64,000 nt of DNA from Escherichia phage vB_EcoM_Lh1B. The notes beneath the pieces were generated by a model. That model saw nothing but the letters and a program-made list of their open reading frames with translations, did no database searches and was not told where the DNA came from. The translations under genes were made by a program, and so were the position numbers. Positions 23,158 through 29,595 of the stretch are shown here, in pieces. Positions within the stretch are counted from its first letter, which is position 1; every line of letters begins with the position of its first letter. The DNA lies in the sequence record OK428535.1, one strand, 5' to 3'.

Positions 23158-23730
23158 ATGTCGCAGTCTTTGCAAGAAGCCTCGACGGATGTGTTGGATG
23201 TTCTTATCCAGGCGGGCACCAATAAATTAAGCCTGGAAGAGAGTAACCGACTAAAAACAGCCGCCCAGACCGCTTTGGGAAGNGATGTTGAAATTGATGT
23301 CACTAAACCTGCTAACGTGATTCTTACTTCTTTACGCCCCCTCATCCTTGNGCAGGNGGGGAACATGGCGAAAACGTTTGAATCGCAAGCAAAAGCCGCC
23401 GTAGAAAGCATGGATGAAAAGCTCGCCAAAGAAACGTTATTGACCCTGTGGCCAAATTTGAAAGGTCCGCAGAAAGTCCTTATCGTTTTGTTGGTGCTGA
23501 CCACTGTGGTGATTACTGGCGCGATGGCCTGGGACACGCACCTGCATTATCCACAGGAGTTAACGGATGTGCTGATTGTGGCGCTCTTACCTTTGTTTGC
23601 TCAGGCCGTGTTCTTTACATGGCCGATTAAGACGCTTGCTTACAATTCGATGGCCATTGGTGCCAAGGTTGTTGAATACAAGCTGAATAAGAGCAACGCG
23701 AAGCAACAGACTACCGCACCTAAAGAGTAA
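23158..23730 (+). CDS. membrane protein (190 aa, two predicted transmembrane helices)
   Basis: Hydrophobic segments VLIVLLVLTTVVITGAMAW and VLIVALLPLFAQAVFF; terminator downstream. Confidence 0.5.
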   Translation: MSQSLQEASTDVLDVLIQAGTNKLSLEESNRLKTAAQTALGXDVEIDVTKPANVILTSLRPLILXQXGNMAKTFESQAKAAVESMDEKLAKETLLTLWPNLKGPQKVLIVLLVLTTVVITGAMAWDTHLHYPQELTDVLIVALLPLFAQAVFFTWPIKTLAYNSMAIGAKVVEYKLNKSNAKQQTTAPKE

Positions 23731-23734
23731 TTAA

Positions 23735-23777
23735 GCCCTCTTCTCCTCCTGGAGAAGAGGCTTCTTATTTTTTTTAT
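23735..23777 (+). terminator. rho-independent terminator
   Basis: GCCCTCTTCTCC...GGAGAAGAGGC hairpin followed by long T-run. Confidence 0.7.
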
Positions 23778-23827: not shown

Positions 23828-24466
23828 ATGCAATTACAATTTCGTCAACGGTCTGTACTACTACCGTTTAGCGCTATATTAGGTTCGTTTACCAAAATGC
23901 TGTCTGTGGATTTTACTGCAGCTGAGAAAGAAGCGCTGTTATTGGCGGCAGTCGAAGAAGTATTGTGGGAGGCGTTTTACGTAGTGCCGTTTCGTAGCTG
24001 CTTAAACGCCCCGTATGTTGAAGGGCAGTTTGTCAGCGCGCTTTCCGCTGCAATTACCAAACGTAAACTAAATGCCATGGCACACGTCAAAGAGATCACC
24101 GCGCAACGAGGACGGATATTCGCTACCGTCAGAAATGTGTTAATTAAAGAAGGGTTTCTTGCAGATGCGTTAGGTCCCGAAGTTCCTTGGGAACCAGGCC
24201 ATCCGCCGCGTCAGTTTGACCACGGGTACAAGTTAAGTATAATTATGCCACGCGGTAAGCGTGACGTCTCATTGGGGAAATGGTTACAGATAAGTTGGGT
24301 TCGTCCTACTATCGATTGGCAAGAAATGTCGGTCAATCGCTATCTGGAACACCTGGCAAAAACACCGGCACAGTTTCACCGTTCAACAATCCTGCCGCTA
24401 CACTTGCTGTTAAAACCGTCCCTGTCATTGGCAGAAGCCAGATACCTGCTTAGTGGAGAGAAGTGA
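23828..24466 (+). CDS. hypothetical protein (212 aa)
   Basis: ORF with AAGGAA RBS. Confidence 0.5.
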   Translation: MQLQFRQRSVLLPFSAILGSFTKMLSVDFTAAEKEALLLAAVEEVLWEAFYVVPFRSCLNAPYVEGQFVSALSAAITKRKLNAMAHVKEITAQRGRIFATVRNVLIKEGFLADALGPEVPWEPGHPPRQFDHGYKLSIIMPRGKRDVSLGKWLQISWVRPTIDWQEMSVNRYLEHLAKTPAQFHRSTILPLHLLLKPSLSLAEARYLLSGEK

Positions 24467-24948
24467 TGCTTGTTATTAATGTGGTCGAGGATAAGATTCC
24501 CGCGAATGTTTATCCTGAACTGGTTGAATGGGTGCGCGACTTAAACAGTATCCGCGAGGAGCCTATTAAACTCACGATGTTTGTTGAGGATGATATCGTG
24601 CGGGGAATCATGGCATGGGAACCTGGCCATTTGGTCTATATGGTTGTGCCCGAAGAATCGCGGCGGGGCGGTGTCGGCAGATTTATGCTTAAGTATCTTC
24701 AGCAGAACTCCGATCGTAAACACATCAGCTGTCGTGTTCACCCGACCAACATTCCCGCGCTAGGATTCTTTCACCAACAAGGCTTCCAGATTGACCGATG
24801 GTATATTGCTGCTGACGGCCAACGGTATTTTCGTATGACGAACTACAATGTTATTTCGTCACACACGCCGCCGGAGGAAAAGCTTTTAACTCATTACGCT
24901 GAAAGCGTTCCCATTTTTCTTTCGATGGCAGAAGGTCATTTCGTCTAA
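24466..24948 (+). CDS. GNAT-family N-acetyltransferase
   Basis: Motif A-like RRGGVGRFML and motif B-like ALGFFHQQGFQ; ATG overlaps upstream stop. Confidence 0.6.
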   Translation: MLVINVVEDKIPANVYPELVEWVRDLNSIREEPIKLTMFVEDDIVRGIMAWEPGHLVYMVVPEESRRGGVGRFMLKYLQQNSDRKHISCRVHPTNIPALGFFHQQGFQIDRWYIAADGQRYFRMTNYNVISSHTPPEEKLLTHYAESVPIFLSMAEGHFV

Positions 24949-25834: not shown

Positions 25835-25842
25835 ACACAGCG

Positions 25843-25880
25843 TATAGGGGCTTCGGCCCCTATACTGTTTATTATTTTCC
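25843..25880 (+). terminator. rho-independent terminator (UUCG loop)
   Basis: TATAGGGGC-TTCG-GCCCCTATA followed by T-rich run. Confidence 0.65.
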
Positions 25881-26542: not shown

Positions 26543-26547
26543 GACAC

Positions 26548-26590
26548 TACCCTCGCCCGTTTAGCGAGGGTAGGTATTTATTTTTTTCTT
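26548..26590 (+). terminator. rho-independent terminator
   Basis: CTACCCTCGC...GCGAGGGTAG followed by TTTATTTTTTT. Confidence 0.7.
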
Positions 26591-26623
26591 ACGAATCGTC
26601 CACTCCGTATAGGAGGTAAGTCC

Positions 26624-27223
26624 ATGAAAAAGATTTATAAAATTGCGGTAATCGGTTCTCGGAAGACTGATGAAGATACCATGTCTGAAATGTACATGCG
26701 ATTGTTACGTGGGTTTAATGCGCTGCACGCCAAAGATTACACGATTCATTTTTCTTCTGGCGGCTGCTGGTGTGGTCCAGACCAATTGCAATTCCGATTT
26801 GCCCGACAGTGGGCGAATACAATCGACCAAGATACCGGCAAGAAAGTGGTGTGGGATGATGAGTTCATTTGTTACCTACCCGATGAGAAAAAGCTCTGGC
26901 TCAAGAAACAGAATCCCAACGTAGAGTTCCGTGTAATCCCTCAGGATGACCGCTATCGTGAGATAGTAGGTAAGCTTCATCCCGCCCCACAAAAGCTCCA
27001 GGAGTTCGCCTGGGCGCTTCATGGCCGTAATCTGAATATAATTATGGGCGATGATTTAGCAACGCCTGTAGACGCAGTTTATTACTCTGCGCCTTTAGAT
27101 AAACAAGGTAATCCGACCGGCGGTACTGCCATGGGCGTGAAATACGCTAAGCAGTGTGGTATTCCTTGTTACCACCATGCGCTTGAAGGACATCTGTGGC
27201 TTGAGAGCTTGTGCTTATTATGA
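26624..27223 (+). CDS. SLOG / DprA(Smf)-like Rossmann-fold protein
   Basis: KIAVIGSR near the N-terminus, FSSGGCWCGPD and PTGGTAMG glycine motifs recall DprA/LOG/YpsA families. Confidence 0.45.
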   Translation: MKKIYKIAVIGSRKTDEDTMSEMYMRLLRGFNALHAKDYTIHFSSGGCWCGPDQLQFRFARQWANTIDQDTGKKVVWDDEFICYLPDEKKLWLKKQNPNVEFRVIPQDDRYREIVGKLHPAPQKLQEFAWALHGRNLNIIMGDDLATPVDAVYYSAPLDKQGNPTGGTAMGVKYAKQCGIPCYHHALEGHLWLESLCLL

Positions 27224-27253: not shown

Positions 27254-27526
27254 ATGCAAACTACCAGTTTAGCTNGTCGTTTGTGGGAAGCATTNTTCCC
27301 TACNCCGNCAAAACCCATTAAGAAGGTGACTAGCCTTCGCTTGTTCCCAGGCACCGAGGATGAGTTCTTCGATTACCTGGAACNCCNCGGTTTTGATTCG
27401 AAAGTCNCACCACAAGAAAATGACCCAATTCAGACAGTTTACACCACGCCGGATACGGGAGAGATATTTGCCTTGTGTGTTCGATGGCCACATCGCAACT
27501 ACTACTATACTTTGACGCAGATGTAA
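27254..27526 (+). CDS. hypothetical protein (90 aa; N-rich)
   Basis: ORF only. Confidence 0.4.
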   Translation: MQTTSLAXRLWEAXFPXPXKPIKKVTSLRLFPGTEDEFFDYLEXXGFDSKVXPQENDPIQTVYTTPDTGEIFALCVRWPHRNYYYTLTQM

Positions 27527-27536
27527 GGAGCAGGGG

Positions 27537-28670
27537 ATGTCGACGCTCGATTTAGATTTAGAAGTCCTGACTGACGACTACGATCGCCTGGTCGCACTCG
27601 AAGGTCTGGGAGTTAAGCCCGACTTCCCTGCGGTTTGCGCGATCCGTCAGCGTTGGTGCTTAACCGACGACGGTGAAGATATGTTGGTTGCTCGTGAATC
27701 GCGCGAAGCGANGGAGCGTGCTCAGTTTATGACTGATACTGACCCGCGGGCTGGCATCCATCGCGCAGCAGGGCGCATTACTGCGAAAGCTGTTAAAGGT
27801 ACTGGAAAGTTAGTGGGTGCTGGACTAGGTGCAACCGCAAAGGGCGCGGGTAAACTTTCGAAAAAGCTCGCATTACGCTTTTACGATTTCGCGGAAGCGC
27901 TAGCGAAAGAACAAGCCGACCGTTTGAAAGAAATAACTTCGAAAGCTGCTTTCATGGAACGTAAGCTCAATAAGCTTAAAACGCGAATGTCGCTGCTAGA
28001 TGACCACAAAACACTCGCTGCGGTCGACGTTCACACGAGTAGCTGGACGTCTAAAATTTGCTTTGAAGATCGACCCGATTTTGAAGCGTGTGTTAAGTTT
28101 TCTAAACAAACAAACGCGTACGAAGGCGTCGTGCAAAAGTACACGGTTTACACACGCACCGCTCTGAAGAAAAGCAAAGCATTCGAAGGGCCGGGCTTAA
28201 AACAAATCAGCAAGTCCACGAACTGGGCAGTTAAGCGTGCTGCTGGGTTGCTTGGCATCATCGATCCCTTTAAAAAGGTGGAAGCTTTTCCTGTCCCTGG
28301 AAATATCGTTGTGGTTGAGCACCATAGTGGTAAAGTCAGTTGGGCAATTGCGCGTGACGGTGAGTATGGTGAAACCATTAAATCGCTGGATATGCATCAG
28401 TGTGGGAAAGCATTAGAGGCTGTGGAAGCACTTATCAAATCTATTGCTGCACGTGGAACAAAGAACCGTGTTGTGGGCTACACCGGCATTTACGAAGAAG
28501 TGGAAGCGATGAAGTCCGAGCTTAAGAACCTAGAAGGGGATGAGCTGAAGGAGGCCACGTTACGTTACCGTAATGCAATGGCGATGGAAGACGCTTTCAC
28601 CACGGCATTGGTACGTGTGGCGGAGGGTCTAATGGAATGGACGAAGCAATCGCTGGCCGAGGTGAACTGA
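27537..28670 (+). CDS. hypothetical protein (377 aa)
   Basis: Long ORF; GGAG RBS. Confidence 0.6.
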   Translation: MSTLDLDLEVLTDDYDRLVALEGLGVKPDFPAVCAIRQRWCLTDDGEDMLVARESREAXERAQFMTDTDPRAGIHRAAGRITAKAVKGTGKLVGAGLGATAKGAGKLSKKLALRFYDFAEALAKEQADRLKEITSKAAFMERKLNKLKTRMSLLDDHKTLAAVDVHTSSWTSKICFEDRPDFEACVKFSKQTNAYEGVVQKYTVYTRTALKKSKAFEGPGLKQISKSTNWAVKRAAGLLGIIDPFKKVEAFPVPGNIVVVEHHSGKVSWAIARDGEYGETIKSLDMHQCGKALEAVEALIKSIAARGTKNRVVGYTGIYEEVEAMKSELKNLEGDELKEATLRYRNAMAMEDAFTTALVRVAEGLMEWTKQSLAEVN

Positions 28671-29131
28671 TGAAGATTATTACCATAGTGGGGCCAGACA
28701 CGGCTAACGGCAGGAAATATTCCACAGATATCCTCGCGCTTTATAACGAGCTGGACAAAAGCGAAATAGAAAGCTATCGAAAAGAGACGGGTATTAATGT
28801 CCGTTTTACGCCGGCTAAATCGTTAGCCGAGCGCTTCCGGGGTCGTTTACTGGCGGTCGTGGACGACGGTGTCTTGTATGGCTTTGCGCAATACCGCACG
28901 ATGACTGAAGAGGGTGTGACGATGATGTCGGTATCCTCACTGGTCGTTAGCAGCAGCGCACGTGGTAAAGGTTACGGCACCGCGTTGATGGATGCGGTAA
29001 AGAAATCCGCAACGGAAAAAGGGTGTACAGTTGTTCACCTGTCCGTGAACGCCGGTAACGCTGCCGCGAAGTCGCTCTACGACAAAGCTGGCTTTAAGGT
29101 AGGTGCTTACCAGATGTATTGGAGGGTGTGA
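28670..29131 (+). CDS. GNAT-family N-acetyltransferase (tandem paralogue 1)
   Basis: SARGKGYGTALMDAV and SLYDKAGFKV motifs; ATG overlaps upstream stop (TGATG). Confidence 0.65.
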   Translation: MKIITIVGPDTANGRKYSTDILALYNELDKSEIESYRKETGINVRFTPAKSLAERFRGRLLAVVDDGVLYGFAQYRTMTEEGVTMMSVSSLVVSSSARGKGYGTALMDAVKKSATEKGCTVVHLSVNAGNAAAKSLYDKAGFKVGAYQMYWRV

Positions 29132-29595
29132 TGAAAATTGTTTTTGTCACCAAGCCCAACTCTCCGTATGGAAAGAAATACTACGCGGACTTGTTAGGAC
29201 TACACAACAAGTTATACGACGATCAGAAAATAAAACTTGCCGACTTAAACGGTCGTGAAGGGTTTAATCAAATCTCAAAACTGGAGGAGGTTTGGGGTGA
29301 AGGTACGCTGTGCGCTTGCGCCGTTGATGACCGTGGTGTGGCTGTTGGTTTCATCACCTTTGGCTACACCAAAAAGGGACAACGTTTCCTCTGGGTATAT
29401 AACTTTTTTGTAGATGAATCGGTTCGTTCACAAGGCGTTGGCCATGAACTGATCGAAGCCGTAGAGAACTATGGCAAATCAAAAGGCTGCGCATGGATGC
29501 AGCTTAACGTGCTCGGTAATAACGACCGTGCTATTGCGTTTTATGAACGTTTCGGATTCCGAACTGAATACCAGGATATGGTAAAGGAGCTTTAA
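29131..29595 (+). CDS. GNAT-family N-acetyltransferase (tandem paralogue 2)
   Basis: VRSQGVGHELIEAV and AFYERFGFR motifs; N-terminus MKIVFVTKP parallels MKIITIVGP of the neighbour. Confidence 0.65.
   Translation: MKIVFVTKPNSPYGKKYYADLLGLHNKLYDDQKIKLADLNGREGFNQISKLEEVWGEGTLCACAVDDRGVAVGFITFGYTKKGQRFLWVYNFFVDESVRSQGVGHELIEAVENYGKSKGCAWMQLNVLGNNDRAIAFYERFGFRTEYQDMVKEL

Follow-up and report, generated by a model that had tools for sequence, protein, structure and literature searches.

A stand-alone DprA-like SLOG protein of Escherichia phage vB_EcoM_Lh1B, predicted to dock onto single-stranded DNA

Introduction

Does the DprA-like protein encoded at positions 26,624 to 27,223 of a stretch of Escherichia phage vB_EcoM_Lh1B bind single-stranded DNA (ssDNA) in phage DNA metabolism, or does it destroy an immune signal of the host? 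The gene, referred to here as gp92 after its orthologue in Salmonella phage SPN3US, lies in 64,000 nucleotides of the sequence record OK428535.1 that were analysed as a whole and are called the window below; positions refer to the window unless another record is named. SLOG domains have been reported for about 31% of jumbo phages (PMC9503650), and two incompatible predictions on the viral members have come from the one group with an analysis of them. Iyer et al. (2021) described the DprA/Smf protein of jumbo phages as an ssDNA binder and possible substitute for UvsY (PMC7824862), whereas Iyer et al. (2022) read fusions with NADAR, Macro and DUF4326 domains as a sign that viral SLOGs sense or cleave immune signals derived from ADP-ribose (PMC9503650).

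Our analysis identified gp92 as a stand-alone SLOG (Rossmann-like) protein of a large, almost exclusively phage-borne family that is nearest to the Rossmann domain of bacterial DprA/Smf, and the evidence leans to docking onto ssDNA over the destruction of an immune signal. The gp92 family alone has about 1,900 detectable relatives, and SPN3US is a genetically tractable model of the nucleus-forming giant phages. The function of gp92 would settle the role of a whole widespread phage family, and it would also bear on recombination-dependent replication or DNA-lesion repair inside the phage nucleus. The classification itself is already known from RefSeq, PHROGs and the comparative-genomics literature, and as the result of a genome scan it is ordinary because the annotation pre-exists.

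The gene and its signature motifs

The gene and its signals are listed here together with the sites of the conserved motifs. Other frames that overlap it contain short open reading frames (ORFs), all of 84 amino acids or less.

26624..27223, + strand: coding sequence of gp92, a single-domain SLOG protein of 199 amino acids with an ATG start; orthologue of SPN3US gp92 (SPN3US_0092 / YP_009153386)
26612..26616, + strand: Shine-Dalgarno sequence GGAGG, 7 nt 5' of the gp92 ATG, read off the sequence
26547..26573, + strand: terminator-like hairpin whose stem has 10 bp, 7 of them GC pairs, with a run of T behind it, between gp91 (tail protein) and gp92
26654..26662, + strand: codons of G11-S12-R13, the DprA signature motif 1 (G-[STA]-R)
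26756..26782, + strand: codons of S45-G-G-C-W-C-G-P-D53, the SGxAxGxD loop where helix 2 starts, aligned with SGLA-GID of Smf and of the DprA proteins HpDprA and SpDprA
26978..26983, + strand: codons of H119-P120, a family-specific motif (98% and 95% conserved) that has no counterpart in canonical DprA
27017..27031, + strand: codons of L132-H133-G134-R135-N136, the DprA signature motif 2 ([FLY]-x-x-R-[ND]), in helix 127-141 and aligned with F-P-R-R-N of Escherichia coli Smf
27119..27127, + strand: codons of G166-G167-T168, the phosphate/nucleotide loop, aligned with S-G-S of Smf

An earlier reading made from the letters of the window without database searches (the sequence-only reading) had pointed to IAVIGSR at the N-terminus and to later glycine-rich motifs. 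Both are present, the former at residues 7-13 and the latter as SSGGCWCGPD (44-53) and TGGTAMG (165-171). In 25 gp92 orthologues with identities of 42-99%, the residues G11, S12, R13, S45, G46, G51, D53, H119, L132-N136 and G166-T168 are invariant, and the same signature residues are 93-100% conserved in 191 relatives whose median identity to gp92 is 28%. Judged from these alignments, the motifs are under strong selection and are not chance features.

Membership in the phage family PHROG 768

The DNA of the region is 95.6-98.7% identical to SPN3US-like giant phages of the genus Seoulvirus among the full-length matches listed, namely Proteus phage 7, the SPFM series, SPN3US and SEGD1. SPN3US_0092 was named 'hypothetical' in the original GenBank record and is a 'DprA-like DNA recombination-mediator protein' in the current RefSeq version. 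The same name is carried by PHROG 768, whose profile matches gp92 over its full length (E=2.3e-47, residues 4-189), and the signature GSR / SG-G-D / HP / LH-RN / GGT of this family is found in gp92 as well.

Homologues of gp92 were detected by tblastn in 380 phage records, and an exhaustive profile search found 1,927 relatives at E<=1e-3, which are mostly stand-alone proteins of about 180-190 amino acids on phage-sized contigs. A link of the family to the leading regions of plasmids was rejected, as no more than 3 entries of the plasmid collection have a member, and one of these is probably a jumbo phage. The 222 kb 'plasmid' NZ_CP134650.1 of Enterobacter ludwigii encodes a homologue with 58% identity to gp92 (positions 171198-171746 of that record), and it is probably an SPN3US-related jumbo phage or phage-plasmid and not a conventional plasmid.

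Relation to DprA and the predicted base pocket

The sequence-only reading proposed a DprA/SLOG-type Rossmann protein that could either support recombination or destroy a host immune signal. The assignment to this type is borne out by the match to PHROG 768 and by a family profile that reaches solved DprA proteins. This profile, built from 49 diverse family members, found the solved proteins at E=1.6e-4 to 1e-3, and its alignment puts the GSR of gp92 on G50-T51-R52 of Helicobacter pylori DprA (HpDprA); a narrow profile of the orthologues searched against the sequences of the PDB returned noise only. Profile searches thus do connect the family with DprA, yet Pfam, NCBIfam and PADLOC gave nothing for gp92 itself even at E<=10. 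This includes the Pfam model PF02481 (DNA_processg_A), whose gathering threshold of 29.6 bits gp92 does not reach. The same model is touched by 31 of the 49 relatives at sub- or near-threshold scores (best E=3.3e-8), and the ten relatives that were tabulated individually score 21 bits or less at positions 43-95 of the 212 in the profile.

The SLOG superfamily (Pfam clan CL0349) is defined by a three-layer alpha/beta Rossmann-like fold with a ligand site built from three loops, which lie after strand 1, after strand 2 (glycine-rich) and before the last helices (glycine-rich), and gp92 belongs to it. Foldseek ranked H. pylori DprA first (E=1.4e-4), in agreement with the likeness to DprA. In the structural matching, DprA proteins from three species scored 12.6, 12.0 and 11.4, the DprA-like antitoxin ShosA 11.9, YpsA 11.8, the molybdenum-cofactor carrier protein 11.7 and TM1055 11.4, and the LOG/PpnN enzymes, the TRPM2 SLOG and the ThsA SLOG, which binds cyclic ADP-ribose (cADPR), scored 9.0-10.1. 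Within the SLOG superfamily, we place the gp92 family next to the DprA Rossmann domain, as a separate sister family that is specific to phages. That gp92 mimics the antitoxin ShosA, and so neutralises the toxin of the ShosTA defence system, is highly implausible, as the ShosA model of PADLOC finds no match, the family profile reaches ShosA only at E of about 1, gp92 does not possess the SAM domain of ShosA, and the family extends far beyond what the occurrence of ShosTA would call for.

In the structure of HpDprA with ssDNA, one base enters a small basic pocket of R52, F140, R143, N144 and G164, and the substitutions R52E and R143E lower the affinity 315-fold and 173-fold, respectively (Wang et al., 2014; PMC3950713). 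As marks of a DprA domain that binds ssDNA, the same authors put forward G-[S/T/A]-R and [F/L/Y]-x-x-R-[N/D], and they gave P-G-G-x-G-T-x-x-E as the motif that sets the LOG enzymes apart (PMC3950713). Both DprA signatures are found in gp92: G11-S12-R13, 94-98% conserved in the 191 relatives, aligns with G-T-R of HpDprA and G-S-R of Smf, and L132-H-G-R135-N136 corresponds to F140-N144 of HpDprA. Three separate profile-profile alignments to E. coli Smf also place GSR, SGxAxGxD, I-Y-x-P, LHxRN and GGT in the register of DprA. The counterparts of the pocket residues R52, F140, R143, N144 and G164 of HpDprA are R13, L132, R135, N136 and G167 of gp92, so that, according to the alignments, gp92 keeps the residues that form the ssDNA base pocket. 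The isoelectric points in the family range from 4.4 to 10.7 and the DprA domain of Smf is itself acidic; charge is thus uninformative on DNA binding.

We give a probability of roughly 0.5 to the reading that gp92 binds ssDNA through the predicted R13/L132/R135/N136/G167 pocket in intracellular phage DNA metabolism, as a minimal ssDNA-binding or recombination-mediator factor. In the infected cell the protein, intracellular and not part of the virion, would dock onto ssDNA through its base pocket and would act in the replication, recombination or repair of phage DNA. In the simplest form it would be such a factor for a diverged RecA-like protein of the phage or for the RecA of the host, the role that UvsY has in T4. 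In relatives, the same docking module would be joined to enzymes whose substrates are ssDNA or bases in it, namely an SF1 helicase, an AlkB-type oxygenase or the ADP-ribosyl-DNA hydrolases NADAR and Macro.

Conserved histidines and a possible catalytic site

The 191 relatives share near-invariant H119 (98%), P120 (95%) and D53 (98%), and a further histidine is found at position 133. The subgroup of multidomain and NADAR-fused proteins has Met at the place of His133 but keeps His119 without exception. These residues raise the question of a nucleotide- or base-processing enzyme, similar to an N-glycosidase or phosphoribohydrolase, with a non-LOG set of His119, Asp53, Arg135 and Asn136, whose substrates would be free (deoxy)nucleotides or else a base, damaged or modified, that has been flipped out of ssDNA. 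Bona fide N-glycosidases (LOG and PpnN/YgdH) exist in the SLOG superfamily and are among the structural matches of gp92, the polar residues of the ligand site including His119 and Asp53 are near-absolutely conserved, the HpDprA pocket already takes a single flipped base, and relatives are fused to the base-repair enzymes AlkB, NADAR and Macro. However, the catalytic Glu and the Arg arrangement of LOG are absent, His133 is dispensable in one subgroup, and to our knowledge no SLOG of the DprA clade is catalytic. On balance we consider such an enzyme improbable for either kind of substrate.

Fusion partners in relatives

The relatives include 51 multidomain proteins, some of them giant 'polyvalent' proteins of 1,000-4,300 amino acids. 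The partners found in these 51 are a RecD/Pif1-type superfamily 1 (SF1) helicase (6), NADAR (5), an AlkB-like 2OG-Fe(II) oxygenase (2), DUF7831 (2), Macro (1) and DUF4326 (1). The gp92-type SLOG lies together with RecD/Pif1-like SF1 helicase modules inside proteins of 1,100-4,300 amino acids in the relatives P0064, P0071, P0101, P0104 and P0128, and the SLOG-NADAR fusions P0065, P0380 and P0390 are about 300-360 amino acids long and read LMARN at motif 2, with His133 changed to Met. SF1 helicases translocate on ssDNA, and oxygenases of the AlkB type repair its bases. DarT toxins attach ADP-ribose to the guanine or thymine of ssDNA, a modification that NADAR and Macro domains undo, and orphan NADARs are carried by phages as counter-defence (PMC11825919, PMC11125620).

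In our reading, every identifiable fusion partner is compatible with the SLOG as an ssDNA docking module for a flipped base, and the fusions with SF1 helicase, NADAR, AlkB and Macro fit both the ssDNA and the immune-signal readings. Since NADAR and Macro act on ADP-ribosylated DNA and helicase and AlkB on nucleic acid, the fusions lose most of their specific support for a soluble signal as the target. In the counter-defence reading, the SLOG pocket would sequester messengers derived from ADP-ribose or toxic ADP-ribose metabolites of the host TIR, SIR2 and ART systems, for example the cADPR isomers of Thoeris, or cleave them at the ribosyl-adenine bond. This function was predicted for viral SLOGs from NADAR, Macro and DUF4326 fusions (Iyer et al., 2022; PMC9503650), and the same fusions are present in the gp92 family (NADAR in 5, Macro in 1 and DUF4326 in 1 of the 51 multidomain relatives). 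In addition, the two family-specific conserved histidines could be catalytic, the homologues in phages lie in gene clusters of an early or accessory type, in the company of MazG, Sir2 and phosphatases and not of recombination genes, and SPN3US also has a separate macro-domain protein. On the other hand, the ThsA SLOG and the LOGs are clearly further from gp92 in structure than DprA, PADLOC finds no match for gp92, the LOG motif PGGxGTxxE is missing with Ala or Gly at residue 171, and His133 is changed to Met precisely in the NADAR-fused subgroup. The partners speak against it as well, as the targets of NADAR and Macro are ADP-ribosylated bases of DNA, and fusion to a helicase or AlkB suggests a role on nucleic acid. 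We regard counter-defence against a soluble signal as unlikely, though it is the main rival of ssDNA docking.

A further reading takes the PHROG-768 SLOG as a dedicated 'flipped-base reader' on ssDNA that is neither a recombination mediator nor a sponge for soluble signals, which seems rather improbable to us. With similarly small likelihood, such a protein, alone or fused to NADAR, Macro, AlkB or a helicase, would find and clear lesions that the host inflicts on replicating phage ssDNA, such as ADP-ribosylation of the DarT type. In its boldest form, the His119/Asp53/Arg135/Asn136 site would excise the modified base and make the protein an ssDNA N-glycosidase. If true, a flipped-base reader would bring together the two opposed predictions that have been published on viral SLOGs.

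Genomic setting

According to the sequence-only reading, the gene lies in an accessory island, and this part of it did not stand. The order gp84-85-86-88-89-91-92-93 is kept in the Erwinia phage pEa_SNUABM_38 (genus Derbicusvirus), with proteins that are 30-68% identical, the GC content across the region is flat (0.44-0.51), and the neighbours are virion genes. Mass spectrometry of SPN3US virions assigned gp83, gp94, gp95 and gp97 to the head and gp84 and gp91 to the tail, and SPN3US_0092 and SPN3US_0093 are absent from the virion tables, even though trace non-virion proteins are listed in them (PMC10052503 supplement). The island is rejected because synteny, composition and proteomics speak otherwise. 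The protein gp92 is therefore intracellular and not packaged, and its gene is part of a conserved block. The neighbouring features are:

27537-28670: orthologue of gp94, a phiKZ-type internal head protein (PHROG 2497, E=1.5e-87; Pfam phiKZ_IP at 18.5 bits, below the cut-off)
24463-24948, 28637-29131 and 29119-29595: three GNAT acetyltransferase paralogues that flank gp92
23737-23760, 25842-25865 (palindromic, with a score on each strand) and 26547-26573: strong hairpins

The gp94 orthologue starts 11 nt past gp93 and shares 34 nt with the GNAT gene that comes next; gp94 was found in the heads of SPN3US and is possibly a substrate of the prohead protease. One of the flanking GNAT genes is the orthologue of SPN3US gp95, a head protein by the published mass spectrometry, so that an acetyltransferase appears to be packaged in the capsid. 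As a parallel, the GNAT HP0935 of H. pylori acetylates K133 of DprA, and this residue matters for DNA binding (PMC12273574). Between positions 23500 and 30500, terminator-like hairpins are enriched (15 found, 6.6 +/- 2.9 expected), which suggests that the block is divided into short transcription units. Ambiguous bases (N) occur at 27254-27526 and at scattered sites (e.g., 27276, 27295, 27304, 27308, 27385, 27387 and ~25230) and produce X residues in gp93, gp89 and other ORFs, which reflects assembly quality and not biology; the BLAST matches to several SPFM phage assemblies are broken into 40 pieces by the same trait.

In other phages, the gp92 homologue lies within variable clusters of small genes. 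In phi92 its neighbourhood includes a phosphatase, methylases and a Sir2 gene, and in Acinetobacter phages a MazG-like pyrophosphohydrolase; in two metagenomic phages it adjoins GreA-like and AAA genes. No recurrent partner (recombinase, single-strand binding protein (SSB), Macro or NADAR) stands beside the homologues in four phage genomes and four metagenomic contigs. In Karamvirus, a genus of T4-like Enterobacter and Klebsiella phages, the PHROG-768 gene lies directly 3' of RNA ligase 2, and its start codon overlaps the stop codon of the ligase gene, as in Enterobacter phage vB_ECC_CW742 (3006-4555 of the piece of that genome that was examined). The overlap suggests translational coupling. 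This arrangement would suit an ssRNA-binding or RNA-repair accessory factor. However, the adjacency to RNA ligase 2 is restricted to one genus, no RNA-repair gene adjoins the homologue in the SPN3US-like phages, phi92, the Acinetobacter phages or the metagenomic contigs, and the locus in T4-like genomes is a hotspot of small unrelated genes, so that we consider a role in RNA repair distinctly improbable.

A candidate partner and the case against ssDNA docking

A partner recombinase for gp92 is plausible, and in related nucleus-forming phages a RecA-related protein is imported into the phage nucleus. SPN3US encodes an orthologue of phiKZ ORF152 that is unannotated (NC_027402.1, positions 187951-189444; 497 amino acids, 30% identity, E=5e-52) and has a deviant P-loop-like sequence, GRGNTFKST. 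In phiKZ, ORF152 is presumably the 'RecA-like' protein, and the SPN3US orthologue is a candidate for the diverged RecA-like protein that this group of phages would have in the nucleus. Another candidate in SPN3US, a weak match to E. coli RecA (E=0.041; positions 236780-238156 of NC_027402.1), was rejected, as it is the head protein gp262 and has no support from Pfam, PHROG functions or the PDB.

Several points weigh against docking of gp92 onto ssDNA. Searches of Pfam and of the PDB sequences see no RecA in the SPN3US orthologue of ORF152, and none of the contexts examined has a gp92 homologue next to a gene for a recombinase or SSB. Neither the SAM nor the winged-helix domain of DprA is found in gp92, the significant sequence link to DprA is confined to the N-terminal half, and the register of the C-terminal half rests on low-probability alignments together with the structural match. 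The pair His119 and His133 is odd for a pure DNA binder and hints at catalysis or a specific ligand, and the pocket motifs would be equally suited to a free nucleotide. Moreover, the function is predicted and not experimental for all members of the family, and the authors who had proposed ssDNA binding later preferred a role in ADP-ribose signals for viral SLOGs (Iyer et al., 2022; PMC9503650).

Comparison with known systems

The full-length architecture of DprA/Smf, with a SAM, a Rossmann and a C-terminal winged-helix (DML1-like) domain, is not present in gp92. The Pfam domains PF25317, PF02481 and PF17782 make up E. coli Smf and are found in its orthologues, whereas in gp92 the Rossmann domain fills all 199 amino acids. 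Compared to DprA, gp92 also has an extra helix (109-118) and an invariant His-Pro motif ahead of the helix with the RN pair. The setting differs as well, since the gp92 family is found in phages, whereas DprA/Smf, the ssDNA-binding RecA loader of natural transformation, belongs to cellular competence loci.

The LOG and PpnN phosphoribohydrolases and the cADPR-sensing SLOG of ThsA share the superfamily fold with gp92, and their ligand site is formed by the same loops. However, gp92 does not contain the LOG motif P-G-G-x-G-T-x-x-E (PF03641); it reads P164-T-G-G-T168-A-M-G171 and has no Pfam match. The catalytic Glu of LOG is absent because its position, residue 171, is Gly in gp92 and Ala in most relatives (162 of 191). 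Likewise, neither the PADLOC models nor structural similarity identified gp92 as a SLOG of the ThsA type or as a known component of defence or anti-defence systems. ShosA, the antitoxin of the anti-phage system ShosTA, has a SAM domain, pairs with the toxin ShosT and shows no significant sequence match to gp92.

The YpsA, YspA (YAcAr, DUF2493) and MCP clades and the viral 'YpsA-like' SLOGs of Iyer et al. (2022) are also distinct from the family, as gp92 has no match to Pfam DUF1273 and 5 of the 49 relatives weakly touch YAcAr. Among the predicted viral structures of BFVD, the remaining SLOG clades of phages (YspA, cpYpsA, DUF2493) lie at a much greater distance, with TM values of 0.38-0.45 as opposed to about 0.70 for the closest structures, which are proteins of the Phi92 gp047 type. 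Phi92 gp047 is the type member of PHROG 768, and gp92 is an ordinary member, with all signature residues common to both. Within the family, the subgroup from SPN3US and the Erwinia jumbo phages is distinguished by Cys48, which is Ala in most members, and by a short insertion at residues 65-79.
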